Part shown: positions 13,269-58,106 of the stretch, one piece after another | How the letters are laid out: each line of letters begins with the position of its first letter | Position numbering within the stretch: position 1 is the first letter of the stretch | NCBI GenBank assembly: GCA_903944345.1 | Contig: CAJARJ010000002.1 | Coordinates: 1,969-65,968 of the forward strand | Length of the DNA: 64,000 bases | DNA from: Candidatus Omnitrophota bacterium | GTDB taxonomy: Bacteria > Omnitrophota > Gorgyraeia > Zapsychrales > Fredricksoniimonadaceae | Reading direction: 5' to 3' | The notes under the pieces: generated by a model | Databases searched by the model: none | Seen by the model: only the letters and a program-made list of their open reading frames with translations | What the model was told of the DNA's origin: nothing | Translations under genes and position numbers: made by a program

Positions 13269-13275
13269 CTTTCAC

Positions 13276-33774: not shown

Positions 33775-34905
33775 TCAGGAGAGGTTACGGATAATATCTT
33801 CGACAGAACGCGGCCGGGCGAGCGCGGCACAGGCGGAACGGGCAGCGGCAAGCCGTTCCGGCGAGGAGGCCAGAGCATGAATTTCTGCCGCAATATCCGA
33901 CAAAGACTGCCCGCTCGAACCTATCTTGTAACGTTCCAACACAGCAACATTACCGGCTTCCTGACCGGGAATTGCGCTGAAGAATATCATCGGGAGGCTC
34001 GCGGACAATGCTTCGGTGATCGAAAGACCGCCGGGCTTGGTCACCATGACATCGGTCGCCGCCAGCATCTCTTCCATATTGCTGACAAAACCGCACACCT
34101 TGTGTAAAGGGTTTTTTCGCGCGGCAATCTTTTCGGCCAAAGCCTTGTTGTTGCCACAAATAAGTATGAGCTGAACATCCTTGAGCAGTTCTGCCAATTC
34201 ATCGATAGGGCCAAAGCCGAAGGAACTGGTGGAAACAAGCGCGGTAAAAGCCTCCGGACGCAGGCCGAGCTTGCGCCGGATGTCCTGTTTGTCACGCGGA
34301 ACCAGAAACTTTTCATCCACCGGAATACCGGTCACCCGCACACGCTGCGGATCAACCCCCAGCGCGACCAGCCGTTCACGGGTATATTCACAAGCTACCA
34401 GATAAAGATCCACGCCAGCTGAAAGCCAGATACGGTGCACATCGTAATCCGTAACAATCGTCACCAGCCGGGAACGCAATTTTCCGGTCTGGCGCAAATG
34501 TCCGCAGACTTCCGTGGCAAAAAAATGCGTGGAAACAATAACGTCAAATTCCCCTTCTGTCACCAAGCGCACCAAAGGCCCGGCATTCAGCGCATTATAA
34601 ACACGCCTCACCGAACAAAAAACCGGGCTAAACCACGCCTGGTCGGAAAGCTCGAAGAACTTCTCCCATAAACCGGGCAATTTGCCGACCATATAAGCAT
34701 AGAAGGAAGCATACGTGGCCCGAAACAGGCAAGAAGAATGATCCAAAGCATCTTCCAGCCTGGCCGTGCCAACAACAGACCCGCGCGCCTGGAAACCATG
34801 ATATACCGCCTCAGCGGCTTTGCGGTGACCGGCGCCCGCGCTTGCGTGCAGGATGAGGATCTTCGGCGAGGATAAGGTCGACTGCGTCATAGAGGTCCTC
34901 CACAA
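33775..34905 (-). CDS. GT28-family glycosyltransferase (MGDG synthase / UgtP / MurG-like)
   Basis: ILILHASAGAGHRKAAEAV N-terminus and a GT-B C-terminal half are typical of the monogalactosyldiacylglycerol synthase family. The start may lie downstream; the ORF overlaps gmhB by about 80-95 nt. Confidence 0.65.
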   Translation of the reverse strand: MWRTSMTQSTLSSPKILILHASAGAGHRKAAEAVYHGFQARGSVVGTARLEDALDHSSCLFRATYASFYAYMVGKLPGLWEKFFELSDQAWFSPVFCSVRRVYNALNAGPLVRLVTEGEFDVIVSTHFFATEVCGHLRQTGKLRSRLVTIVTDYDVHRIWLSAGVDLYLVACEYTRERLVALGVDPQRVRVTGIPVDEKFLVPRDKQDIRRKLGLRPEAFTALVSTSSFGFGPIDELAELLKDVQLILICGNNKALAEKIAARKNPLHKVCGFVSNMEEMLAATDVMVTKPGGLSITEALSASLPMIFFSAIPGQEAGNVAVLERYKIGSSGQSLSDIAAEIHALASSPERLAAARSACAALARPRSVEDIIRNLS

Positions 34906-35410
34906 TAAAATCCGGACGAATATCCCAGCGTTTCATGTACTGCTGGTCTTCCCGACCGGAAAGCACAAAAACCGTTTTACAGCCGGCATTCTTTCCGGCC
35001 TTGATATCCCCTTGGGTATCTCCGACAAAATAAGTATGGCCGGCATCGTCAATGCTGTGGTCGATCGATTCCAGAGCCTTGATAACATTGCCGATCCGGG
35101 GTTTACGGCAATTGCAGGCATCGTTCGACTTGCAAGTGCAATACAACACCTCTTCAATACGGCCGCCGGCTTCGCCGACATTCCGAAGCATATACGCCGT
35201 AATCTGCTCCAGTTTCTCCCGGGAGTAAACCCCCTTGCCCACACCGGCCTGATTGGAAACCACAAAGATATGATAGCCGGCATCCGTCAAACGACGCAAG
35301 GCCTCCAGCGACCGGGGAATAAAATGAAAATCCCTGATCTTGGTCACATAAAGCCCGTTTCCGGGAAATTCGTTGATAACCCCGTCTCTGTCGAGAAAAA
35401 CAACTTTCAT
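34811..35410 (-). CDS. gmhB: D-glycero-D-manno-heptose 1,7-bisphosphate phosphatase (HAD family, histidinol-phosphatase-like)
   Basis: MKVVFLDRDGVIN...VVSNQ...CxCRKP motif string. Start codon at 35408-35410. Confidence 0.75.
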   Translation of the reverse strand: MKVVFLDRDGVINEFPGNGLYVTKIRDFHFIPRSLEALRRLTDAGYHIFVVSNQAGVGKGVYSREKLEQITAYMLRNVGEAGGRIEEVLYCTCKSNDACNCRKPRIGNVIKALESIDHSIDDAGHTYFVGDTQGDIKAGKNAGCKTVFVLSGREDQQYMKRWDIRPDFIVEDLYDAVDLILAEDPHPARKRGRRSPQSR

Positions 35411-35417
35411 ACCAGCC

Positions 35418-36239
35418 TTACCAGCTGCGCGAACCGGGTGTACCGGGCTCGTCGCCTTTGTGTGTGCCAGCCGCATGCGCTGCCGGGTTTTGTACAAGCT
35501 CGTAATATTTCGCATAACTGACAATCTGATACAGCCCGGAAAACACCGCCAGCATAAAACCGGGAAACCCGTCTTTGTAACCGCGCTTGCCGATATAATA
35601 TCGGAAGAAACGATCGATAGTACGCCATAGGGCCGTTCCCAAGGTCATTTTGCGTCCGGTCTCCACCCACTTGCGGGCCTCCATCGAGGTTTGTCCGTTC
35701 ATTTTCGAAATAAAATGCGAGAAATCGCGATAGCTATAATGAAGGATATCGCCCTTGAGGGTACGGGTCTTCCCCTCCATAAAAACGCGCGGGTGAACCC
35801 CCACTTCCTCGTATTTGAAACGATCCTTGCGAAAAAGCCGCAACTGGGCCGAAGGATACTGCCCTCCGTGTCGAAGCCAGATCGTTCCAATAAAATTCCG
35901 GCGCGGCAAATTGTATCCGGCCATGTCGGTCTCTGTCCCGAGTGTCCGGTCGATTTCCTTGCGCAGCTCGGGCGTCATTCTCTCGTCGGCATCCAGGCTG
36001 AGCACCCAGTTGTGCGTGGCACGGGCATAGGCCCAGTTGCGATGCCGGCCCTCATTATCCATCCGACGTTCAAAAACGCGGCTGGTAAAACCGCGTGCGA
36101 TCTCCACGGTACGATCGCTCGAACCATCGTCAACCACCACGACCTCGTCCGCCCAGGCGCGCACGCTGGACAGGCACGGTTCAATATTTTTCTCTTCGTT
36201 GCGGGTGATCACAACAACTGTCAGCGGAGGCCTGGGCAT
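35418..36239 (-). CDS. GT2-family glycosyltransferase (LPS core WaaE/KdtX-like)
   Basis: VVVITRNEEKNIEPCL...VVVDDGSSDRT...SLDADE matches the GT2 DXD architecture. Confidence 0.75.
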   Translation of the reverse strand: MPRPPLTVVVITRNEEKNIEPCLSSVRAWADEVVVVDDGSSDRTVEIARGFTSRVFERRMDNEGRHRNWAYARATHNWVLSLDADERMTPELRKEIDRTLGTETDMAGYNLPRRNFIGTIWLRHGGQYPSAQLRLFRKDRFKYEEVGVHPRVFMEGKTRTLKGDILHYSYRDFSHFISKMNGQTSMEARKWVETGRKMTLGTALWRTIDRFFRYYIGKRGYKDGFPGFMLAVFSGLYQIVSYAKYYELVQNPAAHAAGTHKGDEPGTPGSRSW

Positions 36240-44370: not shown

Positions 44371-44769
44371 TTAAAACTGCCGCAAATAATCTTCCGCCGG
44401 TCGCTCGCCCTGTGGACGCGTATGCCAGTATGTGGACGCCGACGGATCAAAGCGACGCTCCAGATGATCTTTACGGATCAGCCGCAAGAAAAGAGCCACC
44501 GGCGTAAAAACCAGATAAAAGACCAGCGTCAGAATAATTGTGGTCACAACCGCCCCAATCCCGTGCGCCACCCGCATCCAGCCGCGGTAGCCCGGCCCCA
44601 AAGCCCGCGGACAAAAAATCGTAACCGGGAAAAAAACCGCCGCACAGGCCAGCAGCACCACCTGCGGCCAGCCCGGTCCGTGTTTGATAATCCCGCCCGC
44701 GGCAAAGACCAGGGCAATGACTCCCAGACCATACCCGAACACCAGAAGATCCCGCTGTCGCTTATTCAT
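44371..44769 (-). CDS. SxtJ-like membrane protein (carbamoyltransferase-associated)
   Basis: Start MNKRQRDLLVFGYGLGVIALVF. Two or three TM segments. Conserved position between the carbamoyltransferase and the SxtK-like gene, as in sxtI-J-K-type arrangements. Confidence 0.5.
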   Translation of the reverse strand: MNKRQRDLLVFGYGLGVIALVFAAGGIIKHGPGWPQVVLLACAAVFFPVTIFCPRALGPGYRGWMRVAHGIGAVVTTIILTLVFYLVFTPVALFLRLIRKDHLERRFDPSASTYWHTRPQGERPAEDYLRQF

Positions 44770-44773
44770 ACGC

Positions 44774-46603
44774 CTAGTCCAGTTCCCGCACAATATCTTC
44801 TTTGCTATATTTATCCCGCTCGGGCTGCTCGCGTTTATCGAGGATACAATGGCCAAGCACCAGAAAATCCATATCCGTGCACATAAAACAGCGATAAGCA
44901 TCCTCAATGGTGCAGACAATCGGCTCGCCGCGAATATTAAATGACGTGTTGATTATCACCGGACAACCGGTCTTGCGCTCGAAAGCCTTGATGACATCAT
45001 AATATTCCCCGTTACGCTCACGAGTCACGGTCTGCACCCGTGCGGAATAATTCACGTGCGTAACGGCGGGAATCGTGGAACGGCAAACCTTGAGGCTGGA
45101 GAGACCACGCGGGCCGCTAAGACGGGAATGCGGATCAACCTGGGACTCCTGCACCGGACCGACCAGAAGCATATAGGGACTCGCACAGGGCAAAGACACA
45201 TATTCTGAGGCTCTCTCTTGCAGGATACTGGGAGCAAACGGGCGAAACGACTCGCGAAACTTGATGCGCACATTCATGAGTTCCTGCATTCTTTTCGAAC
45301 GCGCGTCGCCGATAATACTGCGCGCCCCCAAAGCGCGCGGACCAAACTCCATTCGGCCCTGCACAAACCCCACCACATTTTCCCGGGCCACCAGCTCAGC
45401 GACCTGGTCATAAAAATCCGTTCCCGCGAGTCTGCGATACGGCGCATGCCGAGACTGCAGAAAAGCCTCGACCTGGTCATCTTCGATACCCGGCCCCAGA
45501 TACGAGCCCAGCTGCGTATCATTAACTCCGTCGGCCTGACGCGGCTGTCCCATATAATGATGCCAGGCAACAAGCGCCGCCCCCAGCGACCCCCCGGCAT
45601 CTCCGGCTGCCGGCTGTATCCAGACCTGGTCAAAAATCTTCTCGCGCACAATCCGGCCGTTACCCACACAATTAAGCGCCACGCCTCCGGCCAGGCACAA
45701 ATTCTTCTCGCCGGTTACCTCCCGCACATGCCGCGCGGTCCTGAGCATAATCTCTTCGGTCACTTCCTGGACAGAGCGGGCCATATCCATATAAAACTGC
45801 TCAAGCGGAGCCTCGGGCCGGCGCACGGGACGGCCAAACAAACGGTTAAACCGCGGGCCGGTCATGGTCAGCCCGGCGCAATAATCAAAATAGCGCATAT
45901 TAAGACGAAATGATCCGTCCGCCTTGATATCCACCAGTTCCCGCCGGATAAGATCGGCATAACGCGGCTCACCGTAAGGGGCCAGCCCCATCAGTTTGTA
46001 CTCGCCGGAATTAACCCGAAAGCCGCAATAATAAGTAAAAGCAGAATAAAGCAATCCCAAGGAATGGGGAAAACGCAATTCGCTCTCGAGGCGAAAGCGG
46101 CCACCGTTGCCGCGGCCAAAACTGGTTGTGGCCCACTCCCCGACACCATCCATGGTCAGAATGGCAGCTGAAGCAAAGGGCGAAGGAAAAAACGCGGAAG
46201 CCGCATGCGCCTCGTGATGCTCGCAGAAAAGAATTTCACCGCCAAAACCTGCCAGCTCTGCGGACAAGACATCCTTGAGGAACATCTTTTCCTTGAGCCA
46301 GACCGGCATGGCTTTAAGAAAGGAACCCAGCCCGGCGGGCGCGTAATTCAGATACGTCAGAAGCAGACGTTCCAGTTTCAAAAACGGCTTTTCGTAAAAA
46401 GCGGCGAGCGCCACGTCCTTAAGAGTGATGCCTGCCTCACGCAGGCAGAAAGCCACTGATTCTGCCGGAAAGCGGGCATCGTGTTTGCGACGGGTAAAAC
46501 GCTCTTCCTGGGCGGCCGCGACCAGCTGGCCATCCTTAAGAAGGGCGGCGGCACTGTCATGATAATAGGCCGAAAGACCGAGAATATACACCGGTTTGTT
46601 CAT
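44774..46603 (-). CDS. Carbamoyltransferase, NodU/CmcH family
   Basis: MNKPVYILGLSAYYHDSAAALLKDGQLVAAAQEERFTRRKHDARFP plus the C-terminal carbamoyltransferase domain. Start at 46603. Confidence 0.85.
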   Translation of the reverse strand: MNKPVYILGLSAYYHDSAAALLKDGQLVAAAQEERFTRRKHDARFPAESVAFCLREAGITLKDVALAAFYEKPFLKLERLLLTYLNYAPAGLGSFLKAMPVWLKEKMFLKDVLSAELAGFGGEILFCEHHEAHAASAFFPSPFASAAILTMDGVGEWATTSFGRGNGGRFRLESELRFPHSLGLLYSAFTYYCGFRVNSGEYKLMGLAPYGEPRYADLIRRELVDIKADGSFRLNMRYFDYCAGLTMTGPRFNRLFGRPVRRPEAPLEQFYMDMARSVQEVTEEIMLRTARHVREVTGEKNLCLAGGVALNCVGNGRIVREKIFDQVWIQPAAGDAGGSLGAALVAWHHYMGQPRQADGVNDTQLGSYLGPGIEDDQVEAFLQSRHAPYRRLAGTDFYDQVAELVARENVVGFVQGRMEFGPRALGARSIIGDARSKRMQELMNVRIKFRESFRPFAPSILQERASEYVSLPCASPYMLLVGPVQESQVDPHSRLSGPRGLSSLKVCRSTIPAVTHVNYSARVQTVTRERNGEYYDVIKAFERKTGCPVIINTSFNIRGEPIVCTIEDAYRCFMCTDMDFLVLGHCILDKREQPERDKYSKEDIVRELD

Positions 46604-46635
46604 GATGCCCCGTAATCCCGTTTTGCAAAGAAAGG

Positions 46636-48414
46636 TCACTGGTTAAAATGAAAACTCGCCAGCTTCGCGTACAACGGCGAAGAATTCAGCAGCTGGTCAT
46701 GGGTGCCTTTCTGCACAATGGCCCCTTTGTCCATAACCAGAATACAGTCCGAATGCCGGATCGTTGAAAGGCGATGCGCGATCACAATGACCGTGCGGTT
46801 ACGCATCAGGTTATCCAGAGCCTGTTGCACCAGATGCTCCGACTCGGCATCCAGCGCGGAGGTCGCTTCGTCCAGCAGAAGAATGCGAGGATCACGTAAA
46901 ATGGCACGCGCAATGCACAGCCGCTGTTTTTGCCCGCCGGAAAGCTTGAAGCCGCGATCGCCGACAACCGTATCGAGTCCCTGCGGCATCTTGTCAATAA
47001 ACTCCAGCGCCAGCGCCTGCCGCGCTGCTTCCCGGATTTCCTCGTCGGTGGCGTCTAGCTTGCCGTACAACAGATTGCCGCGAATCGTATCATTAAACAG
47101 AATCATGTCCTGCGTAACCAGCGCCACATGCGCCCGCAGCGAAGCCAGAGTAACTTTCCTGATATCCTGGCTGTCAAAAGAAACCAAACCCGAGTCCGGG
47201 TCATAAAAACGCAGGATCATGTTCATAAGTGTTGTCTTGCCGCAGCCGGTCGGCCCAACCAGCGCCGTGGTCTGCCCGACCATAAAATCATGGGAGACCC
47301 CGTTAATGGTCCAGGCTGACTCGCCCTTGTTGTAACGAAAACGAACATTGGCAAAACTGATCTGTTTTACCGGCGCCAGACATGCAGCAGCGGCGGCGTC
47401 TTCGGTGATCGCGGACTTCCAGTCAAGAATATCGTACAATCTTTTGGATGAAGCCAGCGCCTGCTGGTTGGTCCCGTAAACTTCCGCCAGTTTCTTGATC
47501 GGACGCTGAATGCTGATGACCGATGAAAGAAACAGGGCAAAAACTCCGAAGGACATCTGCCCTTCCATAACATAACGCCCGCCCATCCAGAACACCGCCA
47601 CAACAGCCAGCGCCGCGAGCAGTTCGGTCACCGGGGATAAAACAAGATTGCGGCGGATCCCCTTGATCGTGGCGCGATACAGTTTACGGTTGGCCTGTTC
47701 AAAGCGGCCGATCTCGTGTTCTTCCCGGCCGAATGCCTTGACAATGGCTACTCCCTGGTTGCTCTCGGCAATCACCGAATTAAGGTCCGCCATGGATTCC
47801 TGCGACTGCAAAGACTGCTTCTTGATCGTTTTGCCAATCACATGAATAAGCAAACCGTTAATCGGAAAAATCACTGCGATCACCAGCACCATCTTCCAGC
47901 TGATCGTCAGGGCGATCCCGGCAAAAAGAATCGCCAGCAGAAACTGGTAAACCAGATCGGTCATCCCGTAGGAGATCGCATGCCCGACAAAACTGGTATC
48001 ATGGGTGATACGGCTCATCAGTTCGCCCTGACGCTTTTCGCTATAAAAGTCCAGCGACAATTCCTGGTACTTGCGAAACAGATCGCCGCGCACATCCATC
48101 ACCGTACGCTGCGCCAGCGTATTCATAAACAATCCGCGCAGGTAAACCGCCCCGCCTTTCAAGACATAAAACAGGGGAATAAAAAAGATTATTCCGTAAA
48201 ACAGCGTATAACGGTCAAGCTGGTTGAACTTCTCTGCCAGCTGAACCAGCGCAACGGGCAAACCCTGGGGCAAAATAACCGGCTTGTTGGTAAAAATCCG
48301 GTCTGCAAGCGGAACAATGGCACCAAACTGCAGGCCTTCAAAAAGCGCACAGGCAAACATGGAAAAAATCCCGCCGGCCAGATAATGCACGTTCCGGCGG
48401 GCCAAATGGATCAT
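46636..48414 (-). CDS. msbA: ABC transporter permease/ATPase, MsbA-like lipid A/LPS flippase
   Basis: Six-TM ABC exporter core + NBD with Walker A GPTGCGKTT, signature LSGGQKQRLCIARA, Walker B ILLLDEATSALD. Start MIHLARRNVHY at 48414. Confidence 0.8.
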   Translation of the reverse strand: MIHLARRNVHYLAGGIFSMFACALFEGLQFGAIVPLADRIFTNKPVILPQGLPVALVQLAEKFNQLDRYTLFYGIIFFIPLFYVLKGGAVYLRGLFMNTLAQRTVMDVRGDLFRKYQELSLDFYSEKRQGELMSRITHDTSFVGHAISYGMTDLVYQFLLAILFAGIALTISWKMVLVIAVIFPINGLLIHVIGKTIKKQSLQSQESMADLNSVIAESNQGVAIVKAFGREEHEIGRFEQANRKLYRATIKGIRRNLVLSPVTELLAALAVVAVFWMGGRYVMEGQMSFGVFALFLSSVISIQRPIKKLAEVYGTNQQALASSKRLYDILDWKSAITEDAAAAACLAPVKQISFANVRFRYNKGESAWTINGVSHDFMVGQTTALVGPTGCGKTTLMNMILRFYDPDSGLVSFDSQDIRKVTLASLRAHVALVTQDMILFNDTIRGNLLYGKLDATDEEIREAARQALALEFIDKMPQGLDTVVGDRGFKLSGGQKQRLCIARAILRDPRILLLDEATSALDAESEHLVQQALDNLMRNRTVIVIAHRLSTIRHSDCILVMDKGAIVQKGTHDQLLNSSPLYAKLASFHFNQ

Positions 48415-48428: not shown

Positions 48429-49598
48429 TCAAACCGTCAGTCCTTTCCGACGCAAATATGCCTCGACAACCTCCGCCGCATAATCCAGCTGGCTGATTTC
48501 TATGTCCTGATGAATGCCGATATGCGTGCCCTGGTCGCTGCAGTATTCGGCCTGAGGAAAATCCCCGATACGATGCCCCAAAAAAGCATAGCTCGGGCAC
48601 TGGGTAGGCATGGAATAAAACAGATTGCGTGAATCGACCCCCTGGCTTTCAATATAAGACACAAACTCGTCTTTCCCGAAAGGCAGCCCTTCCCGCAGGA
48701 TAATGGAAAAAGCATGGGGCCCGAGTTTTTCGTGCGCCTCTTCTTTGAGGGTAATAAAATACCGGTCAAGGCGGCGAAAACGGTCAATCAGATACAACAT
48801 GTTACGCCGGCGCGTCTCAAGGATCTGCCCGAATATATCCAGATTCCCCAGACCAACCGCCGCTTCAAGTTCGTTCATCTTGGAAGAAAACCCGATCCGG
48901 GAAAACGTAAACTTTCCGGTCATACCGTGATTGCGCAAAGAGCGCAGCGCCTCGGCTGTCTGCCCGCAATTAGTCAGGATCATTCCGCCTTCAATGGTCG
49001 TCACGATGTGCGCGGCATACAGGCTGAAACAGGACATGTCCCCGATCGCCCCGATCTTGCGCCCCTTGTACTCGGCCCCGTGCGCTTCGGCGGCATCCTC
49101 GATGATCCTGAGGTTGTGCCGACGGGCAATGGCACAGATCTCGTCCATAGCCGCCGGCTTGCCCATAAGATGCACCGGCATGATCGCCCGGGTGCGCGGC
49201 GTGATCTTCTCCTCGATAAGGGCGGGATCAATATTGAGCGAGTCTCTCTGGACATCCACAAAAACCGGGGTCAGTCCGGCCTGGAAGACCGCATTCCCCG
49301 TGGCCACAAAAGACAAGGCCGGCACAATGACTTCATCTCCACGACGGGCACCAAAATCATACAAGGCAGCACAGGCCAGGGCGTCCGCATCCGTTCCGCT
49401 GGAAACCGCCACACCATGCTTCATGCCGAACAGAGCGGCAAAACGCTCCTCAAATTCGTGCACATACTTGCCCTTGGTCACCCATTTGCTGTCCAGCGCT
49501 TCATTAATCAGCTGACGGGCTCGGGGGGTAATTGACACCGTCCCGAAAGGAACCTTGTATCCGGCTTTTTTTGACTCTTGCCCCGCGGCGAACTTCAT
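48429..49598 (-). CDS. DegT/DnrJ/EryC1-family PLP-dependent aminotransferase (second copy)
   Basis: ARQLINEALDSKWVTKGKYVHEFEERFAALFGMKHGVAVSSGTDA. Start MKFAAGQ at 49598. Confidence 0.8.
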   Translation of the reverse strand: MKFAAGQESKKAGYKVPFGTVSITPRARQLINEALDSKWVTKGKYVHEFEERFAALFGMKHGVAVSSGTDADALACAALYDFGARRGDEVIVPALSFVATGNAVFQAGLTPVFVDVQRDSLNIDPALIEEKITPRTRAIMPVHLMGKPAAMDEICAIARRHNLRIIEDAAEAHGAEYKGRKIGAIGDMSCFSLYAAHIVTTIEGGMILTNCGQTAEALRSLRNHGMTGKFTFSRIGFSSKMNELEAAVGLGNLDIFGQILETRRRNMLYLIDRFRRLDRYFITLKEEAHEKLGPHAFSIILREGLPFGKDEFVSYIESQGVDSRNLFYSMPTQCPSYAFLGHRIGDFPQAEYCSDQGTHIGIHQDIEISQLDYAAEVVEAYLRRKGLTV

Positions 49599-49629
49599 GC
49601 AAATTCTCCTTGTCTGCCAACCAACAGCC

Positions 49630-50355
49630 TCAAGCGGCTGGCTCAAGCATCTCGTTTAAATGTTTCTTCGCCCATTCAAAGCGTTCGGGCGTGCCAATAT
49701 CAATAAAGGGCGCATCGGTCTTGTAAGCAAAGAAACCCTGGCCGATCAGTTTCGGAAACACATCATATTCAATCGAAAATTTTCCGGCCGCAGGCATCTG
49801 ATCAAACAGGTTCCTGTGAAAGCAGTAAATGCCCGCACTGATATACTGTGTTTCCCGTGTCTCGAACTTTTCACGAAACGCGGTAATTTCCTCTTTATCA
49901 TTGATTTGCAGCGTTCCGAAATCCTTGTTGCCCTCGACACGCACCCCCACCAGGGACGCCTGGGCCTTGCGGCTGCGATGAAAGTCCAGCAGCGCCCTGT
50001 ATTGCAATGGTGTAAAACAGTCGCCGTTAAGCCCGAAACATATTTCGTTACGGACAAGCGCCCGGGCATTCTTGAATGCCCCGCCGGTTCCAAGCGGTTC
50101 GGTTTCAATTGAGAAATCCAGCTCGACTGACGGAAACTTGTTCTTGTAATGGCTGATCAGCGTTTCTGCCTTGTACCCGGCGCACAAAATAATCCGGCGC
50201 GCGCCCTGACGCGCCAGATAACGGATCAGGAAATCAAGAAACGGCTCGCCCTGAATCTCGGCCATGACTTTGGGCGTTTCGCCTGTCACGGCACGCAGCC
50301 TGGTACCAAGCCCTCCGCAAAGAATCAGAAAATCCGCAGCAATCGCTTCATTCAT
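49630..50355 (-). CDS. Sugar-phosphate nucleotidyltransferase (HddC / heptose-1-phosphate guanylyltransferase-like)
   Basis: FLILCGGLGTRLRAVTGETPKVMAEI nucleotidyltransferase motif, ~240 aa. Adjacent to a GHMP kinase. Confidence 0.7.
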   Translation of the reverse strand: MNEAIAADFLILCGGLGTRLRAVTGETPKVMAEIQGEPFLDFLIRYLARQGARRIILCAGYKAETLISHYKNKFPSVELDFSIETEPLGTGGAFKNARALVRNEICFGLNGDCFTPLQYRALLDFHRSRKAQASLVGVRVEGNKDFGTLQINDKEEITAFREKFETRETQYISAGIYCFHRNLFDQMPAAGKFSIEYDVFPKLIGQGFFAYKTDAPFIDIGTPERFEWAKKHLNEMLEPAA

Positions 50356-50368
50356 AACGTCTCACCTT

Positions 50369-51370
50369 TCACGCCACAACCCCGCTGTTGGGCTGATAGA
50401 AAATAATCTGACTCCCCAGGTTCTCGAACTTGAAAGGAATCTCGAGCAGCCCGGACAACGCCTGGCGCACCCATGGCTTGACTCCGGGTTCCGCGTAAAT
50501 CAGGATAAACCCGCCACCCCCGGCGCCCAGAATCTTTCCGCCCGCCGCCCCTGCCTTGCGTGCCCGCTCGTAGATTGTGTCGATCTCGGGTGTCGTAATC
50601 TTTTCGGACAGCGAACGCTTCAGCTCCCAGCTTTCGTGCAGAAGCCGTCCGAACAAAGGATAGTCCGCGGCACTGACTGCCTTGAGCGCTTCCTGCACCA
50701 GGCCGTACATCGTCGTCAACTCGGAGGTCCTGTTAGGAATATTGCGAATCTGGTGCACCGCGACTTCCGAAGCCATCCGCGAGAACCCGGTGAAAAAAAG
50801 CATCAGATGTTCCTGCAACCCGTCGGTAACCGTTTTGGGCGCGGTCACCTGACGCACCGCCGGCGTACCGTCATGGGAAAACTCAATATAATTCAGACCA
50901 CCGAAAGCCGCCAGCACCTGATCCTGACAGCCGACATTTTCCCTGATCATGCTCTGCTCGATATGAATGGCTTCCCGGGCGAGCTGCTCCTTGGTGGCCA
51001 TCGACCCGCGCAAGGCATAAAGCACGTTAAGCAAGCCTACAGTAAAAGAAGAGCTGGATCCCAGTCCGGCCCTGGCCGGGAGATCTCCGTCATGGTGGAT
51101 CTCCACGCCCTCCTGGATCTTGAGAAAACGCAAGGTCTCGCGTACGGACGGATGCTCAATCTCGTCAATCGACTGACGGACATGCTCCATCCGGGAATAA
51201 ATGATCCGCGAACGATGCTCGAAAAACGGCGGAAGATACCGGGCGGTGATATAACAGTATTTGTCAATTGTCGTGCCCAGAACTGCACCGGGGTGCTCCC
51301 TGAGCCAGGCAGGGTAATCGGTTCCTCCACCAAAAAAAGACACACGAAAAGGCGTCCGGCTGATAATCAT
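50369..51370 (-). CDS. GHMP-family sugar kinase (D-glycero-D-manno-heptose 7-phosphate kinase HddA-like)
   Basis: MIISRTPFRVSFFGGGTDYPAWL N-terminus and GHMP motif LPARAGLGSSSSFTVGLL. Confidence 0.75.
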   Translation of the reverse strand: MIISRTPFRVSFFGGGTDYPAWLREHPGAVLGTTIDKYCYITARYLPPFFEHRSRIIYSRMEHVRQSIDEIEHPSVRETLRFLKIQEGVEIHHDGDLPARAGLGSSSSFTVGLLNVLYALRGSMATKEQLAREAIHIEQSMIRENVGCQDQVLAAFGGLNYIEFSHDGTPAVRQVTAPKTVTDGLQEHLMLFFTGFSRMASEVAVHQIRNIPNRTSELTTMYGLVQEALKAVSAADYPLFGRLLHESWELKRSLSEKITTPEIDTIYERARKAGAAGGKILGAGGGGFILIYAEPGVKPWVRQALSGLLEIPFKFENLGSQIIFYQPNSGVVA

Positions 51371-51418
51371 GCAATTCTCTCTTTAACCCGGGCGCAGGAA
51401 CATTTTAGCCCGGCAAGG

Positions 51419-52351
51419 TTACACGTTGGAATACTGATTGCGCCGCAGGACCTGGTAAGCCTTGACCAGTTCCGCAATACCGTCGGACAAAGAAACATCC
51501 GGCTTGAACCCGGTTCGCTCAATCTTCTCGTTGGAAACGATATAATCACGCTTGTCGGGATCTTCCCCGACAGCCGCCTCAACAAAATAAAAATCCGGGA
51601 CATGCTTTTTAATGGCCTCACACAACTCCAGCTTGCTGATATTCGCGTCGCTCAGCCCGACATTATAGGCTTCACCTTTCATCGCAGAAAAATTCTCCAT
51701 TGCATGCATAAACGCCTTGGCCACGTCACGCACATGGATAAAATTGCGCTTGAAGTGCGCCTCAAACAACACGACAAAACGATCCTGAACCGCGCGATAC
51801 ACAAAATCATTCACCAGAAGATCAAGCCGCATGCGCGGACTGGCTCCAAAAGCCGTAGCCAGACGAAGGGTCACGCCATGCCCGCTGTCGAGCACAATTT
51901 TCTCGGCTTCACACTTGAGCCGGCCATAAACGGAGATCGGCCGCAGCGGCGTTTCTTCCGTACAAAACTTGCCCTGTTCCCCGATACCATAACCACTGTT
52001 GGTCGTGGGAAAAACTATTGGCTGCTGGCGGGACGACAACTCCGCAACAAGCCTGACCGCGTCAACCAGAATTGTCTGCGCCGAAAAAGGATCTTTGGCA
52101 CATAAAGGCGCTCCGGTCAGGCAGGCCAGCGGGAATATCGCATCAACCGCGGGAACCAGTCTGGACAAAACCGCGCGGTCACGGACATCGCCGCGAATCA
52201 GGGTCAAACGAGCATCATGGCAAATATCCAGTAACGGTGTCTGGCTGTACATAAAATTATCCAGCACCGTAACACTATGCCCTTCCTGCAAAAGCCGCGG
52301 CACCATGACCGCTCCAAGATATCCGGCTCCTCCGGTCACCAAAATTTTCAT
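51419..52351 (-). CDS. NAD-dependent nucleotide-sugar epimerase/dehydratase (extended SDR)
   Basis: MKILVTGGAGYLG and YxxxK (VYGRLKCEAE). Start at 52351. Confidence 0.75.
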   Translation of the reverse strand: MKILVTGGAGYLGAVMVPRLLQEGHSVTVLDNFMYSQTPLLDICHDARLTLIRGDVRDRAVLSRLVPAVDAIFPLACLTGAPLCAKDPFSAQTILVDAVRLVAELSSRQQPIVFPTTNSGYGIGEQGKFCTEETPLRPISVYGRLKCEAEKIVLDSGHGVTLRLATAFGASPRMRLDLLVNDFVYRAVQDRFVVLFEAHFKRNFIHVRDVAKAFMHAMENFSAMKGEAYNVGLSDANISKLELCEAIKKHVPDFYFVEAAVGEDPDKRDYIVSNEKIERTGFKPDVSLSDGIAELVKAYQVLRRNQYSNV

Positions 52352-52446
52352 ATTTCCTCCAGGCTTCATCCATGAGCCGAGACAAGATCGGCCCCTACAC
52401 CCACATCACACCTAACCATCCCGCAAACCATCCGACCGAAAAAAAA

Positions 52447-53361
52447 TTATTCCGGATCCTGCGCAAACAATGCTGCAACTCCCTGCGCCAGCGAAATGCC
52501 CGGCCGCCAGCCAAGGGCATTGAGGCGAGAACTATCCAGCAGTTTTCGCGGCGCACCATCCGGCCTGGACGTGTCCCAGCAAATCCGTCCATTATAACCG
52601 GCACTGCCTGCCACCAAGCCGGCCAGTTCACGAATCGAAATATCTTCGCCCGCTCCGATATTAACCGGAGCGTCATCATCATAGCGTTCAAGCAGGAAAG
52701 CACAAGCGCTGGCAAGGTCGTCTGCGTGCATAAACTCACGCCGGGGACTCCCGCTGCCCCAAAGCGTAATTTCCGGCAAACCCTCCCGGACGGCCTGGCG
52801 CACCCGGCTGACCAGAGCCTCCAGCACATGGGACTCTTGCTGCCCCTCCCCTCCGGGACCGTAAACCGTGGCCGGAATCCCGACAATCGCATGAAACCCG
52901 TACTGCCGGCGGTAAGCCTGGCATAACACCATGCCGGCCGCCTTGGCCAAAGAATACGGCTCGGAGGTCTTTTCCATCGGACCGGAAAAAAGGTCATCTT
53001 CCTTCATCGGCTGGGAGCAATCTCTGGGATAAACGCAGGAGGCCGCAAGATAAAGCAACTTTTTAACTCCGTGCCGGAAAGAAGCATCAATAATATTGTT
53101 CTGCACCTGGAGATTTTCATACATGAATTCGGCCGGATACGCCTGGTTGGCCCCGATACCCCCCGAACGAACAGATGTCAGAATAACCCGTTCCACCGGA
53201 CAAGAACAAAAAAACGCCTCCACCGCTCCCCGATCCTGCACATTGAGCCCCACCCTCGCCGAGGAAATAACCCTCACCCCGGTCAATGAAAAATGAGCAA
53301 AAAGCTCCGCCTCCGTACAATCCCGATGCCCGACAATCAAAAGAACCGGATCATTTTTCAT
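52447..53361 (-). CDS. GDP-L-fucose synthase-like 3,5-epimerase/4-reductase (Fcl family)
   Basis: ASSCVYPRD, YSLAKAAG (YxxxK) and the overall Fcl/GER length. N-terminal Rossmann motif is atypical (LLIVGHRDCTE). Confidence 0.65.
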   Translation of the reverse strand: MKNDPVLLIVGHRDCTEAELFAHFSLTGVRVISSARVGLNVQDRGAVEAFFCSCPVERVILTSVRSGGIGANQAYPAEFMYENLQVQNNIIDASFRHGVKKLLYLAASCVYPRDCSQPMKEDDLFSGPMEKTSEPYSLAKAAGMVLCQAYRRQYGFHAIVGIPATVYGPGGEGQQESHVLEALVSRVRQAVREGLPEITLWGSGSPRREFMHADDLASACAFLLERYDDDAPVNIGAGEDISIRELAGLVAGSAGYNGRICWDTSRPDGAPRKLLDSSRLNALGWRPGISLAQGVAALFAQDPE

Positions 53362-53887
53362 TGTAAAAATTTCCCTCTTCGATGATCAGCGTCGAACGCC
53401 CGTCGCCGCGCAAATACGCACGCTCGTAAGCAGGAAAAATTTCTTGCGGTTCGTTAACCTCGACCACCTCGATCCAGTCAAACATCCGGCGAAACGCCTG
53501 GACAAAGTTGCCGACATGCTGGTGTCCGGGATGCACCGGTTTGAAAGGACCGGTAGCCACACGGATTATAATCTTGGCGGAAGCCTCGCCGCCGCTCATC
53601 GCCGAAAGCTTATCCACCATATTGGACATGTCCCCCAGGGCCAACAGCAAAAAGTTCTGCCTTGGATAAACTGACACCGGAACATATCCTTCCAGTGCCA
53701 GGCCCAGGGAAAACTGCATCTGGAAACTTTCATTAACCGGGAATTCCAAAGCACGGTCTTTGGGCACATCACGCAAAGTCTGATACATGAACGTTCCGGG
53801 CACCGCCGCTGTCTGCCCGATAAAAAGAGTATCCGGCTGCTCTGCCAGCCATTCCATGGTGCGTTTTAGTTCGTCAAAATATTTCAT
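53351..53887 (-). CDS. Small TPP-enzyme subunit, E1-beta/transketolase Pyr-domain-like (178 aa)
   Basis: N-terminus LKRTMEWLAEQPDTLFIGQ resembles the start of dehydrogenase E1 beta / transketolase Pyr domain. Truncated compared with canonical E1 beta. Confidence 0.5.
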   Translation of the reverse strand: MKYFDELKRTMEWLAEQPDTLFIGQTAAVPGTFMYQTLRDVPKDRALEFPVNESFQMQFSLGLALEGYVPVSVYPRQNFLLLALGDMSNMVDKLSAMSGGEASAKIIIRVATGPFKPVHPGHQHVGNFVQAFRRMFDWIEVVEVNEPQEIFPAYERAYLRGDGRSTLIIEEGNFYNEK

Positions 53888-53888
53888 G

Positions 53889-54527
53889 TCAGAATTTGAT
53901 CAGTTTGCCCAGACCCGAGTGCGGCCAGGCATTGGTATAACGAAAATATTCGATCTTGCTTTCAAAACGGGTCCCCTTGAACCACGGATCGGCAGATCCC
54001 CAGGCCGCACGCGTGTCGGTCATGACACTCAGGCCATTGTCCGAAACCACAAAAACCGCCGGAAGATCGAAGTTACAAATATACTTGACCGCTTCATGAA
54101 AAATCCCGGTCTCGGCGGACATATCCCCGCAGAAAAGAAAAACCCGCCCGGCCTTACCCCTGCGCTTGAGGGCCCAGGCCGCACCGGCTGCGGTCCCCAT
54201 CAGGCTGCCGACAATCCCGGAACAGTAAACCTTGTACTGCGGAAAGATCAGGGCAATGCTATGCCCGTCAACAATCGACTGCTTGACCTGTTCGCGGGGA
54301 ACTCCCTTGAGCAGGCACAATTCATGCGAATCCCAAAAACCGAAAACATAATCGTCAGGGCCAATATCATATTTACGAAAAATCCGGATAAGCTCGTGTT
54401 CCCGCCCGGCCCGCAGATGCACCGGCGCGGCAATAAGCCCCTGGGCAAAAATTCCGGCTATTTCATTTTCAAAAGCCGTCAGGTCTTCCGGTTGATATTC
54501 CGTCATTTTTTCTTTTTCCCGGCGCAA
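53889..54527 (-). CDS. Small TPP-binding subunit, E1-alpha/transketolase PP-domain-like (212 aa)
   Basis: TPP-binding GDG...N pattern in [59 protein letters not shown]. Confidence 0.5.
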
Positions 54528-55468
54528 GCCAGCTCCGAACGAAACCAGGCTATTGTCCTGGTCAAGCCTTGCTCCAGATCAATCTTAGGCTCCCAGCCCA
54601 GCCGGGTCCGGGCAACCGTAATATCCGGCCGGCGCTGTTTGGGATCGTCTTCGGGCAACGGCTCGTGCACAATCCGGCTTTTGCTTCCGGTCAACTTCAG
54701 CACCTGACGGGCAAACTCGAGCATGGTAAACTCCCCGGGATTCCCGATATTCACCGGCCCCGGCTCGGACGAAAACAAAAGCCGCAAAATCCCGTCAGCT
54801 TCGTCCTCGACATAACAAAACGAACGCGTCTGGCGGCCATCACCGTAAACCGTTAACGGCTCTCCCTTGATGGCTTGACAAATAAAATTAGGAACAACCC
54901 GTCCGTCATTCATATTCATCCTGGGCCCATAGGTATTAAAAATCCGGACAACACGGGTGTCCACCTTGAACGTACGCCGGTAAGCAAACACCGCTGCCTC
55001 GGCATACCGCTTGGCTTCATCGTAAACACTGCGCGAACCAATCGGATTGACATGTCCCCAGTAAGTTTCTTTCTGGGGGTGCTCCTTGGGGTCACCATAA
55101 ACTTCCGAGGTTGAGGTCAAAAGGTAAACCGCTTTCTTGGTACGGGCCAGCTCCAGTGTCTGGTGGGTTCCCTGGGAACCGACGAGCAATGTTTCTATTG
55201 GATAATTCAGATAATCCACCGGACTAGCCGGAGAGGCGCAATGCATGACATAGTCCACCCGTCCGGCAATCTTGAAGGGGCGTGACACATCCTGCTTGAT
55301 AAAAACAAAATCCTTGTTCCCGAGCAAATGGGCAATATTAGCCTTTTTGCCGGTAATAAAATTGTCCAGACAGATCACGCGGTGCCCGCGCTCGATCAAC
55401 TGGTCGCACATATGGCTGGCCAGAAACCCTGCCCCGCCGGTCACGACTGTAACTTTCTTTGCTGGCAT
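54503..55468 (-). CDS. UDP-glucuronate decarboxylase (UDP-xylose synthase family SDR)
   Basis: [27 protein letters not shown], and YDEAKR are UXS/ArnA-decarboxylase family signatures. Confidence 0.8.
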
Positions 55469-55486
55469 ACATTCCTTTCAGGTGTG

Positions 55487-56788
55487 TCAAAGCCGGGTAA
55501 TTTTGTCCGACCGTATCCCCTGGTAAATATTTTTTACATCAAAAACCGCCTGTGCGTGTTTGAGCACCTTCTTGTAATCAATTCCGCTGTGATCCACAGC
55601 CGCCACCACACAATCCTGCTGCGCGATCAATCCGGGCGTAAGCGCAACACCTTCCATCTTGAGTCCGTCAATATGCAGATACGGAATAAGCGGATCATGA
55701 AACTGCACCTGAACCCCGGCCTTGCCCAGCACATCAATAAAATGCACGGCCGGCGACTTGCGCAAATCCCTGACGTCTTTTTTGTACGTCACGCCCAAAA
55801 CCAGCACCCTGGCGCCCTTCAAGTCCCGGCCACTAACGGCCAGCAGTTCCTGTACCCGGGAGAGCGCGTACCGGGGCATTGCCGTATTAATGTCCGCAGA
55901 CAATTTAATAAACTTGGACGAGAAACCCCTTTGCCTGGCTTTCCAGTAAAGATAAATAGGGTCTTCGGGGATACAATGCCCGCCCACTCCGAGCCCGGGA
56001 TAAAAAGGCATAAACCCGAAAGGCTTGGTTTTGGCTGCATCAATGGCCTCCCAGATATCAATATGCATGGCCCGGCACATCATCGCCGCCTCATTGACCC
56101 AGCTGATATTGATCAGGCGAAACGTGTTCTCCAGAAGCTTGGCCATTTCGGCCGCCCGCGGCGAGGACACTGTATGAATATGGGGAATAACTGTTTTGTA
56201 CAAAGTCGCGGCAGTTTCATTGCACGCAGCCGTCACTCCGCCAAGAACCTTGGGGATGGCAGAAAGCTTGTGCGTGGTATTTCCGGGATCAATCCGTTCC
56301 GGTGAAAAAGCCAAAAAAATATCACGGCCGACTTTCAGCCCGCTTTTCTCGAGTTCGGGCATGATCAGTTCCTCGGTGGTGCCGGGATAGGTGGTGCTTT
56401 CCAGAACAACCAGCGTCCCCTTGCTCAAATGGGCCGCAACCGAACGCACCGCCGACAAAATAAATGAAATATCAGGAGTGTACCGGCGCTTGATCGGAGT
56501 CGGAACGCAGATGATAACCGCCCGGCAATCGTGCACAAGCGCAAAATCCGAGGAAGGGACAAAAGTTTTCTTCTTCAACTGACGGGAAATGTCTTGGTCG
56601 GCAACATCGGTTATATAGCTGCAGCCTTCCGCCAGACGGCGAATCTTGTCCGCACTGGTGTCGATTCCGTAGGTCACAAACCCCTTCGCCGCAAACGTCA
56701 GCGCGAGGGGCAAGCCCACATACCCCTGGCCGATAACCGCAATACGCAGTTTCCGTTCGGCGATGCTTTTAAGCAGGGCTTTACGCAT
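55487..56788 (-). CDS. Nucleotide-sugar dehydrogenase (UDP-GlcNAc/ManNAc 6-dehydrogenase WbpA/WecC-like)
   Basis: IAVIGQGYVGLPLA Rossmann motif, catalytic Cys region GGHCIPEDP. UDPG/MGDP-dehydrogenase family, distinct from the adjacent Ugd. Confidence 0.8.
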   Translation of the reverse strand: MRKALLKSIAERKLRIAVIGQGYVGLPLALTFAAKGFVTYGIDTSADKIRRLAEGCSYITDVADQDISRQLKKKTFVPSSDFALVHDCRAVIICVPTPIKRRYTPDISFILSAVRSVAAHLSKGTLVVLESTTYPGTTEELIMPELEKSGLKVGRDIFLAFSPERIDPGNTTHKLSAIPKVLGGVTAACNETAATLYKTVIPHIHTVSSPRAAEMAKLLENTFRLINISWVNEAAMMCRAMHIDIWEAIDAAKTKPFGFMPFYPGLGVGGHCIPEDPIYLYWKARQRGFSSKFIKLSADINTAMPRYALSRVQELLAVSGRDLKGARVLVLGVTYKKDVRDLRKSPAVHFIDVLGKAGVQVQFHDPLIPYLHIDGLKMEGVALTPGLIAQQDCVVAAVDHSGIDYKKVLKHAQAVFDVKNIYQGIRSDKITRL

Positions 56789-58106
56789 TGCGCCTGCCCC
56801 CTATGCCGTAATACTCAAACCCGAGATCGCCGACAGACTTCTCGTCGAGGAAGTTCCTCCCGTCGAAAATGACTGCCTGACGCATAAGCTCCCGAACCTT
56901 GGCCATATCAAGCCCCGAAAATTCCGTCCACTCGGTTAACAGGAGCAGGCAGTCCGCGCCCCGTGCCGCGGCATAAGGATCGGGGCAAAACTTTACATTG
57001 CGCAGCATTTTGGCAGCATTATCCATGGCCTGCGGATCATAGGCCTGGATCAGCGCCCCTTCCGCCTGCAGCGCCTCAATCACGTCCAGAGAGGCCGCAC
57101 GCCGCATATCGTCGGTGTCCGGCTTGAAAGCCAGACCCCAGACCGCCACAGTCTTGTCTTTGAGAATCCAAAGTTTGTCTTCGATCAGCCGGATAAAGCT
57201 CTGCTTCTGTTCTTCATTGACCTGGCGAACACTTTTAAGAATACTGAAATCGTAGCCGTTCTTCTCGGCCAGCCGGATAAAAGCATCAACATCCTTCGGG
57301 AAACAGCTGCCGCCATACCCGATCCCGGCATTAAGGAAGGATCGTCCGATCCGGCGGTCATAGCCCATCCCTTCGGCAACCTTGCCGACATCCGCCCCGA
57401 CCCGTTCACAGATCTGGGCAACGGAATTGATAAAAGAAATCTTGGTAGCCAGAAAAGAGTTGGAGGCATGCTTGATCATTTCCGCTGTAGCAACGTTCGT
57501 GACCACAATCTTGGTCTTGATCGGCTTGTATATCTCGCGTAAAAGACGTTCCGCCCGTTTGGACTCGACCCCGATCACGATCCGGTCAGGCTGCATGAAG
57601 TCGCTGATAGCCGAACCTTCCCGCAGAAATTCGGGATTGGACGCCACGTCAAACTCGACAGCGCCCTTTTTGTCTTTCCCCGACGAGGAAGGAAGATTCA
57701 AACGCACGGTCCGGGCAATACGGTCACCTGTCTGGGCAGGGACAGTCGACTTTTCCACCAGCAACTTGTAGGAATCCATGTTACGGGCCACTTCGCGCGC
57801 CACATTTTCAATATAAACCAGGTCGGCCTCACCGTTTTTCTTGGACGGAGTTCCAACCGCAATAAAAATGACCGAAGCCTTTTTAGCCGCCTCGGCAATC
57901 GAGGTACTGAAGGTCAGCCGGCTATTTTTCCGGTATTTCTCCAGCAGCTCTTCCAGTCCGGGTTCATAAATCGGCACATGCCCGGCCTTGAGCTGACGGA
58001 TTTTTTCCGCATTATTATCCACACAAACAACCGTGTGCCCGATGTGCGCAAGACACGCTCCGGTTACTAGCCCGACATATCCCGACCCGACAATAGCTAT
58101 ATCCAT
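56781..58106 (-). CDS. ugd: UDP-glucose 6-dehydrogenase
   Basis: MDIAIVGSGYVGLVTGACLA, GGSCFPKD catalytic Cys, ~440 aa. Confidence 0.85.
   Translation of the reverse strand: MDIAIVGSGYVGLVTGACLAHIGHTVVCVDNNAEKIRQLKAGHVPIYEPGLEELLEKYRKNSRLTFSTSIAEAAKKASVIFIAVGTPSKKNGEADLVYIENVAREVARNMDSYKLLVEKSTVPAQTGDRIARTVRLNLPSSSGKDKKGAVEFDVASNPEFLREGSAISDFMQPDRIVIGVESKRAERLLREIYKPIKTKIVVTNVATAEMIKHASNSFLATKISFINSVAQICERVGADVGKVAEGMGYDRRIGRSFLNAGIGYGGSCFPKDVDAFIRLAEKNGYDFSILKSVRQVNEEQKQSFIRLIEDKLWILKDKTVAVWGLAFKPDTDDMRRAASLDVIEALQAEGALIQAYDPQAMDNAAKMLRNVKFCPDPYAAARGADCLLLLTEWTEFSGLDMAKVRELMRQAVIFDGRNFLDEKSVGDLGFEYYGIGGRRNA

Follow-up and report, generated by a model that had tools for sequence, protein, structure and literature searches.

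In a 64-kb stretch of contig CAJARJ010000002.1 from a Candidatus Omnitrophota bacterium (hereafter the window), two short adjacent genes lie within a surface-glycan locus. Their predicted products are the diphosphate-binding (PP) and pyrimidine-binding (Pyr) halves of a minimal heteromeric thiamine-diphosphate (ThDP, or TPP) enzyme that falls into the E1 (alpha-keto acid dehydrogenase 2) lineage. The alpha gene (53889..54506, minus strand) encodes a 205-amino-acid (aa) PP domain of the E1-alpha type, and the beta gene (53351..53887, minus strand) encodes a 178-aa protein made up of a Pyr domain of the E1-beta type only. An earlier note on this DNA had described two small adjacent open reading frames (ORFs) at this site as a compact two-subunit TPP enzyme, with the PP half preceding the Pyr half and both subunits far shorter than those of canonical E1 or transketolase. 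It had also placed them between UXS and Fcl genes. Our analysis bears out these points: the two genes are present in that order, with a UXS-like short-chain dehydrogenase/reductase (SDR) gene upstream (54503..55468, minus strand) and an Fcl-like SDR gene downstream (52447..53361, minus strand).

The length first given for alpha, 212 aa, holds for the mechanical ORF (53889..54527) when it is read from a TTG at 54527. The protein itself probably starts at ATG 54506 and is 205 aa long, with the N-terminus MTEYQPEDL, because this codon forms an ATGA overlap with the stop codon of the UXS-like gene that precedes it and because 205-aa orthologs align from residue 1. Alpha is thus translationally coupled to the UXS-like gene. 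Beta starts 1 nucleotide (nt) past the alpha stop codon, and the 11 nt at its 3' end are shared with the beginning of the Fcl-like gene. Together with the ATGA overlap, these junctions make UXS-like, alpha, beta, and Fcl-like a tightly coupled set of four genes. Nearly every credible gene in the window is read from the minus strand, and the GC skew stays negative over the whole length. Long antisense ORFs on the plus strand (50264..52105, 53787..54707, and 55328..56305; up to 613 aa) lie opposite real genes and are probably spurious.

Fold, cofactor motifs, and conservation of the pair

Sequence and structure comparisons place both subunits with E1. Alpha matched the Pfam family E1_dh (1.5e-11) over profile positions 10 to 175 of 300, and a profile of the alpha family matched human pyruvate dehydrogenase (PDH) E1-alpha (2.5e-17) over residues 46 to 211 of 365. 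The segment G127-D128-M129-S-A-E-T-G and the downstream D156-N157 align with the GDG...NN Mg/TPP motif of E1-alpha, such that D128 and N157 correspond to D173 and N202 of chain 1W85_A. What alpha lacks is the C-terminal ~125 profile positions of E1_dh, or the C-terminal ~40% of an alpha subunit. Beta matched Transket_pyr (4.4e-6) with 26.9 bits, just under the cut-off of 27, over profile positions 12 to 169 of 174, and it matched chain 1UM9_B (1.8e-6). Its Glu53 aligns with the Glu that activates the cofactor in E1-beta, which lies in the segment PLSEAA of 1UM9_B. Beta ends with the Pyr domain and has no Transketolase_C domain. The GDMSAETG...N motif that had been read as TPP binding is therefore found where the E1 alignment requires it, and the TPP-binding residues and the catalytic Glu are both conserved. 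The Pyr-type assignment of beta likewise stands, except that beta comprises a whole Pyr domain and not a Pyr-like N-terminus alone.

The predicted structures are consistent with these alignments. The AlphaFold model of alpha has a predicted local distance difference test (pLDDT) score of 91.4 and best matches PDH E1-alpha in the Protein Data Bank (PDB), with a query-normalized template modeling (TM) score of 0.70 to 0.79. For beta, confidence is moderate (pLDDT of 76.9), and the best match is the N-terminal half of E1-beta (query-normalized TM of 0.79 to 0.84); the target-normalized TM of ~0.46 reflects coverage of half of E1-beta. Both domains that form the TPP site are thus retained, while the C-terminal domain of beta and the C-terminal region of alpha are absent. 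By analogy with TPP enzymes as a whole, the assembly is presumably alpha2beta2. Genes for E2, E3, or a lipoyl-bearing protein were not found among all annotated genes from 28380 to 63603 (~35 kb). Since all of the parts that dock E2 have been lost, the enzyme would work alone, without E2.

Comparison with the transketolase, DXS, E1, and ComDE-type families, which the earlier note had called for, again returned E1 as the best match. Neither alpha nor beta matched Transketolase_N (PF00456), and the NCBIfam transketolase models scored 15 to 19 bits against cut-offs of 488 to 575, which rules out a transketolase or a split transketolase. A single-chain architecture like that of YerE, with domains TPP_enzyme_N, TPP_enzyme_M, and TPP_enzyme_C, can also be set aside: the Pfam search of the pair gave no match to the first two and only a sub-threshold match of alpha to the third (19.1 bits versus 21.9). 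Lastly, the order of PP then Pyr, along with best matches to E1, rules out an enzyme of the ComDE type (sulfopyruvate or phosphonopyruvate decarboxylase).

The short pair is widespread. A search of 5.8 billion proteins returned 1169 homologs of alpha and 880 of beta; the best 120 alpha homologs are 202 to 226 aa long and 72 to 91% identical, and the best 120 beta homologs are 168 to 195 aa long, nearly all exactly 178 aa. An exhaustive search of cluster representatives yielded 278 alpha clusters below 1e-10, most of whose listed members are 195 to 225 aa long and 30 to 50% identical. A profile built from cluster representatives reached more than 5200 alpha-type proteins, some of which are recorded under the names Candidatus Pelagibacter, Nitrospira, and Tara Oceans. 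Natural alpha-beta fusions measure 401 to 408 aa and contain E1_dh and Transket_pyr with no further domain. Across 129 to 135 unique sequences (129 for beta), conservation reaches at least 97% for alpha H30, H61, G127, N157, and H196 and for beta E53, Q123, and H124; alpha N157 is invariant, and alpha D128 is conserved in at least 90%. Comparison with Omnitrophota orthologs gave dN/dS values of 0.04 to 0.15, with saturated dS.

These results bear on a caveat raised in the earlier note, namely that the ORFs could be what remains of an interrupted full-length gene for E1 or transketolase or that the TPP motifs could be missing on alignment. The motifs align as described above. Although both ORFs are about half as long as a canonical subunit, we give almost no credence to the fragment explanation: the lengths are kept in thousands of homologs across phyla and phages, the fusions consist of alpha plus beta and nothing more, dN/dS indicates strong purifying selection, alpha folds confidently and beta moderately, and the 1-nt and overlapping junctions contain no remnants coding for an E1 C-terminus. 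Conserved lengths, fusion architecture, and selection together refute the idea of a pseudogene.

Searches elsewhere were less productive. A plasmid search gave distant matches only (27 to 30% identity), of which seven out of eight carry an annotation as E1 alpha subunit, and nothing significant was found in a viral structure library. Literature searches found no paper on the short alpha/beta family and no characterized member. Some alpha homologs have additional parts. One (P0188, 550 aa) contains an intein directly before the C-G-D-M TPP/Mg motif, a position of the type that inteins favor, and another (P0150, 553 aa) is extended at the N-terminus by a segment with a LAGLIDADG-like match. A third (P0232, 552 aa) bears an N-terminal APH-type phosphotransferase (kinase) domain, which echoes the near-constant adjacency of a kinase gene described below. 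In one marine locus (L062 and L063), a second minimal split TPP pair (12712..13952) is located 3 kb from alpha and beta; it consists of Transketolase_N (251 aa) and Transket_pyr (162 aa), again without the third domain.

Partner genes within and beyond Omnitrophota

Downstream of the Fcl-like gene, and also on the minus strand, are four genes that recur with the pair. The first is an SDR gene (51419..52369, with a likely start at ATG 52351), which is a conserved partner of alpha and beta in other phyla. Its product closely matched PDB entries 6VO6 and 6VO8 from end to end (7e-118, 396 bits; residues 7 to 315 versus 3 to 311 of 6VO6_A), which we take to be Campylobacter jejuni Cj1427, a GDP-heptose C4-dehydrogenase. 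It is followed by a GHMP sugar kinase gene (50369..51370) for which the best family is HddA, under the curated cut-off; HddA is D-glycero-D-manno-heptose 7-phosphate kinase. Next comes a sugar-1-phosphate nucleotidyltransferase gene (49630..50355), whose best families are mannose-1-phosphate guanylyltransferase and HddC, both under cut-off. The fourth gene (48429..49646) encodes a DegT-family protein. Its best PDB match is GDP-perosamine synthase and its best NCBIfam match is RfbH. Its His213 occupies the position of the Lys that forms the Schiff base in GDP-perosamine synthase (3BN1; Ala in the mutant chain 3DR4), and His replaces the catalytic Lys, in the motif FSFYYAHH, in 78 of 80 DegT homologs across all loci. 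A Lys-to-His change in ColD and E1 (RfbH) marks 3-dehydratases that depend on pyridoxamine 5'-phosphate (PMP). Despite GDP-perosamine synthase being its closest solved relative, the DegT protein is thus probably, as far as its sequence tells, a sugar 3-dehydratase of the ColD/E1 type.

We counted partner genes in 33 metagenome loci outside Omnitrophota, each 8 kb or longer, which came from a narrow-alignment scan (80 loci) in which one marine and freshwater clade is over-represented. All 33 have alpha plus beta. The most constant neighbor is the HddA-like GHMP kinase (31/33), which is usually adjacent, followed by a DegT-like gene (29/33), a gene for a B12-binding radical S-adenosylmethionine (SAM) enzyme (27/33), the Cj1427-like SDR (23/33), and the nucleotidyltransferase (16/33). 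Fcl-like genes are a variable partner (10/33), SIS genes occur in 6/33, and UXS and Ugd occur in a single locus each (1/33). The same associations hold for distant homologs of alpha (~41% identity), where a beta of 178 to 188 aa always adjoins alpha. Contigs with such homologs encode orthologs of the SDR (42 to 47% identity) and of the GHMP kinase (39 to 41%) as well as a nucleotidyltransferase-HAD phosphatase fusion, an SIS isomerase, a DegT protein, and more SDRs. Given these counts, we rejected UXS and Ugd as general functional partners. A functional tie to the neighboring UXS and Fcl genes, which the earlier note implied, is thus not supported, and the UXS-like SDR, a neighbor only in Omnitrophota, is probably not part of the alpha/beta pathway. 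The partners that stay constant (the HddA-like kinase, the HddC-like nucleotidyltransferase, the Cj1427-like SDR, the ColD-type 3-dehydratase, and the B12-radical SAM enzyme) make it likely that the substrate is a GDP-heptose derivative and not a UDP-pentose.

One locus (L121) is a self-contained island in which alpha, beta, the kinase, the 3-dehydratase, and the C4-dehydrogenase form one operon. A nucleotidyltransferase-HAD gene, a glycosyltransferase gene, and an SIS gene are convergent to this operon, and the B12-radical SAM gene (8099..9634) is located beside it. The operon contains no SDR C4-reductase, which leaves alpha/beta as the only conserved candidate to consume a C4 ketone.

Within Omnitrophota, the pair belongs to a larger conserved block. 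A scan of one genome per species gave 57 loci (alpha identity of 69 to 87%), most labeled Omnitrophota and 23 labeled "uncultured Planctomycetales". The block begins with two GGDEF genes, a ROK gene, LptD, Ugd, in some loci a second NDP-sugar dehydrogenase, UXS, alpha, and beta. It continues with an optional Fcl-like gene, the SDR at 51419..52369, an optional radical SAM gene, the GHMP kinase, the nucleotidyltransferase, DegT, and an MsbA-like ABC transporter. Further downstream, the window contains genes for a carbamoyltransferase, glycosyltransferases, a GT9 heptosyltransferase, a second DegT protein, and a GmhB-like HAD phosphatase (34811..35524, minus strand; match at 34976..35401). This last gene belongs to the same glycan locus, and its product is a possible supplier of heptose-1-phosphate. 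The locus is of the lipopolysaccharide (LPS) type and behaves like core genome in Omnitrophota. A B12-binding radical SAM gene is found in 28 of 30 long Omnitrophota loci, usually between the SDR and the kinase (for example, L008, 11090..12334, and L028, 11859..13391). No homolog of it occurs in the 64 kb of the window, where the SDR/kinase junction (51370..51419) is a 48-bp gap only; nor was an SIS (GmhA) homolog found in the window.

Several neighbors show features of their own. The Fcl-like protein, of the GDP-L-fucose synthase family but under cut-off, is encoded in most Omnitrophota loci. Its Gly-rich loop is degenerate and reads LIVGHRDCTE where the canonical form is AGHxGLxGSA, a change common to nearly all listed Omnitrophota orthologs (~40), while Fcl-like proteins from four loci outside Omnitrophota (L078, L119, L122, and L136) have the canonical loop. 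Nucleotide binding by the window protein, to judge from this loop, may be lost or changed. Upstream of UXS are two nucleotide-sugar dehydrogenase genes in tandem (55487..56788 and 56781..58106, minus strand). One encodes a TuaD-like UDP-glucose 6-dehydrogenase present in nearly all Omnitrophota loci; the other, nearer to UDP-ManNAc/GlcNAc dehydrogenases, is present in only about half. A gene for a NodU-like carbamoyltransferase (621 aa) followed by one for a small SxtJ-like protein (44371..46639, minus strand) suggests O-carbamoylation of the glycan, and in four Omnitrophota loci (L031, L032, L042, and L047) the carbamoyltransferase gene is found between UXS and alpha.

Homologs also occur in phages. 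Alpha-beta fusions are encoded by Synechococcus phage S-SM2 (L144, 8992..10200) and Prochlorococcus phage P-TIM68 (L145, 9055..10200), where they are annotated as "transketolase central region-containing protein". They are surrounded by genes for a carbohydrate kinase, nucleotidyltransferases, phosphoheptose isomerase, and epimerases, together with a class II aldolase. A 735-kb uncultured phage has a homolog as well.

A proposed sugar-branching reaction and its alternatives

The fold, the motifs, their conservation, the obligatory pairing of alpha with beta, and the co-occurrence of genes are established here. Building on them, we propose that alpha/beta adds an acyl branch, probably of two carbons (C2), to the C4 ketone of a C4-oxidized, C3-deoxygenated GDP-heptose. 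We see an even chance that this proposal, which draws on analogy with known enzymes, is right; what we infer is which substrate and donor are used, in what order the steps run, and that a branch is formed. Specifically, products of the conserved genes would make GDP-heptose, the Cj1427-like SDR would oxidize its C4, and the His-containing DegT protein would remove the 3-hydroxyl group in the manner of ColD. Alpha/beta would then decarboxylate a 2-oxo acid, most likely pyruvate, to a TPP-bound acyl-anion equivalent, the addition of which to the C4 ketone would create a tertiary alcohol that bears an acetyl group, or another acyl group, as its branch. An E1-type TPP enzyme would suit such chemistry, in which a 2-oxo acid loses CO2 and the resulting acyl-anion equivalent is added to a ketone. 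Later steps would probably be carried out by the B12-radical SAM enzyme in most relatives and by the Fcl-like protein in Omnitrophota, and the product would be destined for LPS or another surface glycan. To our knowledge, a C4-branched 3-deoxy-heptose derivative is an undescribed sugar. Of the two activities that the earlier note had offered for such an enzyme, transfer of a two-carbon branch is the most plausible role in a surface-glycan locus, whereas decarboxylation of a keto-sugar is not favored because the conserved module gives no sign of a carboxylated sugar intermediate.

Several considerations weigh against this proposal. The branching reaction itself is argued from context and analogy, and the identity of 6VO6/6VO8 as Cj1427 is presumed. 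The kinase is the tightest neighbor, and one alpha homolog is fused to an APH-type kinase, which could place the reaction before nucleotide activation. A C4-reductase may be encoded away from the locus, and there is a dehydrogenase of the 6-phosphogluconate dehydrogenase type just beyond the L121 island. In the S-SM2 and P-TIM68 loci, Cj1427-like and ColD-like partners are missing and the fusion adjoins a Zn alcohol dehydrogenase, so that the acceptor is not universal. Finally, there is the matter of size: 205 and 178 aa compare with the full-size 325 aa of Pau11 and 345 aa of Pau12, an E1-type sugar-branching pair (PMC4425429).

A different order of the same steps would also fit: branching could come first, after which the DegT enzyme, acting on the branch ketone, would remove the tertiary hydroxyl group. 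A more distinct alternative is that alpha/beta is a carboligase like transketolase or DXS that makes an unusual ketose phosphate (e.g., octulose or heptulose phosphate), which would then be isomerized by SIS, phosphorylated by the GHMP kinase, dephosphorylated by HAD, and activated with a nucleotide. Such a route would account for the kinase as the most constant and usually adjacent partner, for the APH-kinase-alpha fusion, for the SIS, HAD, and nucleotidyltransferase genes in many loci, and for the class II aldolase added in phage loci. Yet sequence and fold are of the E1 type, with no Transketolase_N match and transketolase and DXS scores far under cut-off. Furthermore, a 1-deoxy-ketose derived from pyruvate could not be isomerized by an enzyme of the GmhA type, and in compact operons like L121 the C4 ketone generated by the Cj1427-like and ColD-like enzymes would be left over. 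We consider a precursor synthase of this kind unlikely.

Distinctly unlikely, in our estimation, is a pathway resembling that of eurekanate, which comes nearest to what the earlier note had in mind. Here, the UXS-like enzyme would release UDP-4-keto-xylose and alpha/beta would add a C2 branch to the pentose. The order Ugd, UXS, alpha, beta is conserved in Omnitrophota, UXS and alpha share the ATGA overlap, and EvdS6 with EvdU5/EvdS3 offers a proposed precedent (PMC10338323). Outside Omnitrophota, however, UXS and Ugd nearly vanish while the heptose-type partners persist, and release of a 4-keto intermediate by the UXS of the window would have to be assumed.

Very unlikely, too, is a plain 2-oxo acid decarboxylase or a C–C cleaving enzyme of the acetoin-cleaving type that supplies an aldehyde or trims a keto-sugar or ulosonic acid. 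Sulfopyruvate decarboxylase and the imino-acid decarboxylase AzcB/AzcC show that two-domain TPP enzymes can be simple decarboxylases, and AzcB/AzcC-type chains are among the structural matches to beta, albeit weaker than E1. On the other hand, the best matches are to E1 and not to the ComDE/PPDC lineage, and the domains come in the order PP then Pyr. There is no ulosonic-acid synthase or obvious aldehyde-using enzyme among the conserved partners, and cleavage beside C5, which bears the ring oxygen, would be chemically unfavorable.

The branching proposal has a broader counterpart, which we put forward tentatively: the pair may represent a large and unrecognized class of minimal PP+Pyr ThDP carboligases that build a C4-acyl-branched 3-deoxy-heptose, a sugar of nine or more carbons, as a conserved component of the Omnitrophota envelope. 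Members would act alongside an oxidase like Cj1427, a dehydratase like ColD, and a B12-radical SAM enzyme, with related modules in contigs attributed to Pelagibacter and Nitrospira and, in fused form, in cyanophages. If this is true, 205 plus 178 aa would be the smallest scaffold of the E1 lineage, and the third domain would be shown to be dispensable. The conserved module of seven to eight genes predicts an undescribed branched higher sugar on the Omnitrophota surface; the module is seen again in metagenome contigs of marine and freshwater origin that are unassigned, and two homologs are named, one Pelagibacter and one Nitrospira. This has relevance for envelope structure and perhaps for phage-host recognition, given the cyanophage fusions among heptose genes. 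In addition, there is a demand for ThDP enzymes that branch ketones, as biocatalysts in the making of chiral tertiary alcohols. The hypothesis lends itself to a direct test, since enzymatic synthesis has already provided the acceptor that we propose, GDP-D-glycero-3-deoxy-4-keto-heptose (PMC10680097).

Comparison with known systems

The partner genes have their closest parallel in the capsular heptose pathway of C. jejuni (HddA, HddC, Cj1427, and the HS:5 C3-dehydratase), with which they share a homologous kinase, nucleotidyltransferase, C4-dehydrogenase, and DegT protein of the His type. Cj1427 oxidizes C4 of GDP-heptose, and together with a C3-dehydratase it makes GDP-D-glycero-3-deoxy-4-keto-heptose in vitro, as a novel product (PMC10680097). 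Unlike the route that we propose, the C. jejuni pathway ends with epimerases and C4-reductases, and the word "thiamine" is absent from that paper.

The logic of the proposed pathway resembles that of yersiniose and erwiniose, in which a PMP-dependent DegT-family enzyme deoxygenates C3 of a 4-keto sugar nucleotide before a ThDP enzyme branches C4 to give an LPS sugar. YerE and ErwE branch a 3-deoxy-4-keto sugar at C4, and 3-deoxygenation comes first (PMC9306805). YerE, however, is a single-chain, three-domain flavoprotein that resembles acetolactate synthase and acts on a CDP-3,6-dideoxyhexose, whereas the pair has two chains with an E1-type fold and its sugar is probably a GDP-heptose that keeps the 6-hydroxyl group. 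We also considered a link to erwiniose and caryophyllose, which combine 3-deoxygenation, a 4-C-branch, and chain extension, but dropped it since YerE-like enzymes and long keto-acid donors acting on CDP-hexose explain those sugars.

Among enzymes with solved structures, the alpha2beta2 E1 components (PDB 1W85, 1NI4, and 1UM9) are the best matches in sequence and structure, and the pair retains their Mg/TPP motif and activating Glu. In contrast to them, it lacks the E2-binding C-terminal domain of beta, its alpha is cut short beyond profile position ~175 of 300, and its surroundings contain no genes for E2, E3, or lipoyl proteins.

A 2025 review recognizes only three classes of sugar-branching ThDP enzymes, with the E1 type in secondary metabolism; this type is so far confined to actinomycete antibiotics, and for LPS only YerE-like enzymes are known (PMC12247030). 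The E1-type group comprises AviB1/AviB2, Pau11/Pau12 (Plm8/Plm9), EvdU5/EvdS3, the aldgarose enzymes, and KbDH-alpha/beta. Such alpha/beta pairs are credited with placing C2 branches from pyruvate onto keto-sugars (PMC12247030, PMC4802897, PMC10338323), and those for antibiotic sugars apparently use only C2 units from pyruvate (PMC12247030). Like members of this group, the Omnitrophota pair is split into an alpha (PP) and a beta (Pyr) subunit, both of E1 lineage and both encoded inside nucleotide-keto-sugar pathways. Addition of a pyruvate-derived C2 unit to a ketone, yielding a tertiary alcohol, has been proposed for the AviB1/AviB2 class and shown in vitro for KbDH on sugar analogs (PMC12247030, PMC4802897, PMC4425429, PMC10338323). 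The differences lie in architecture and setting: the pair has neither the C-terminal domain of beta nor the C-terminal region of alpha, and while the antibiotic enzymes belong to actinomycete clusters and act on dTDP- or UDP-linked deoxyhexoses or pentoses, the short pair is found in LPS and glycan loci of Omnitrophota, in marine and freshwater bacteria, and in cyanophages, tied to GDP-heptose genes. By analogy, the alpha/beta pair would work like the E1-type sugar-branching enzymes, minus their canonical size and third domain.

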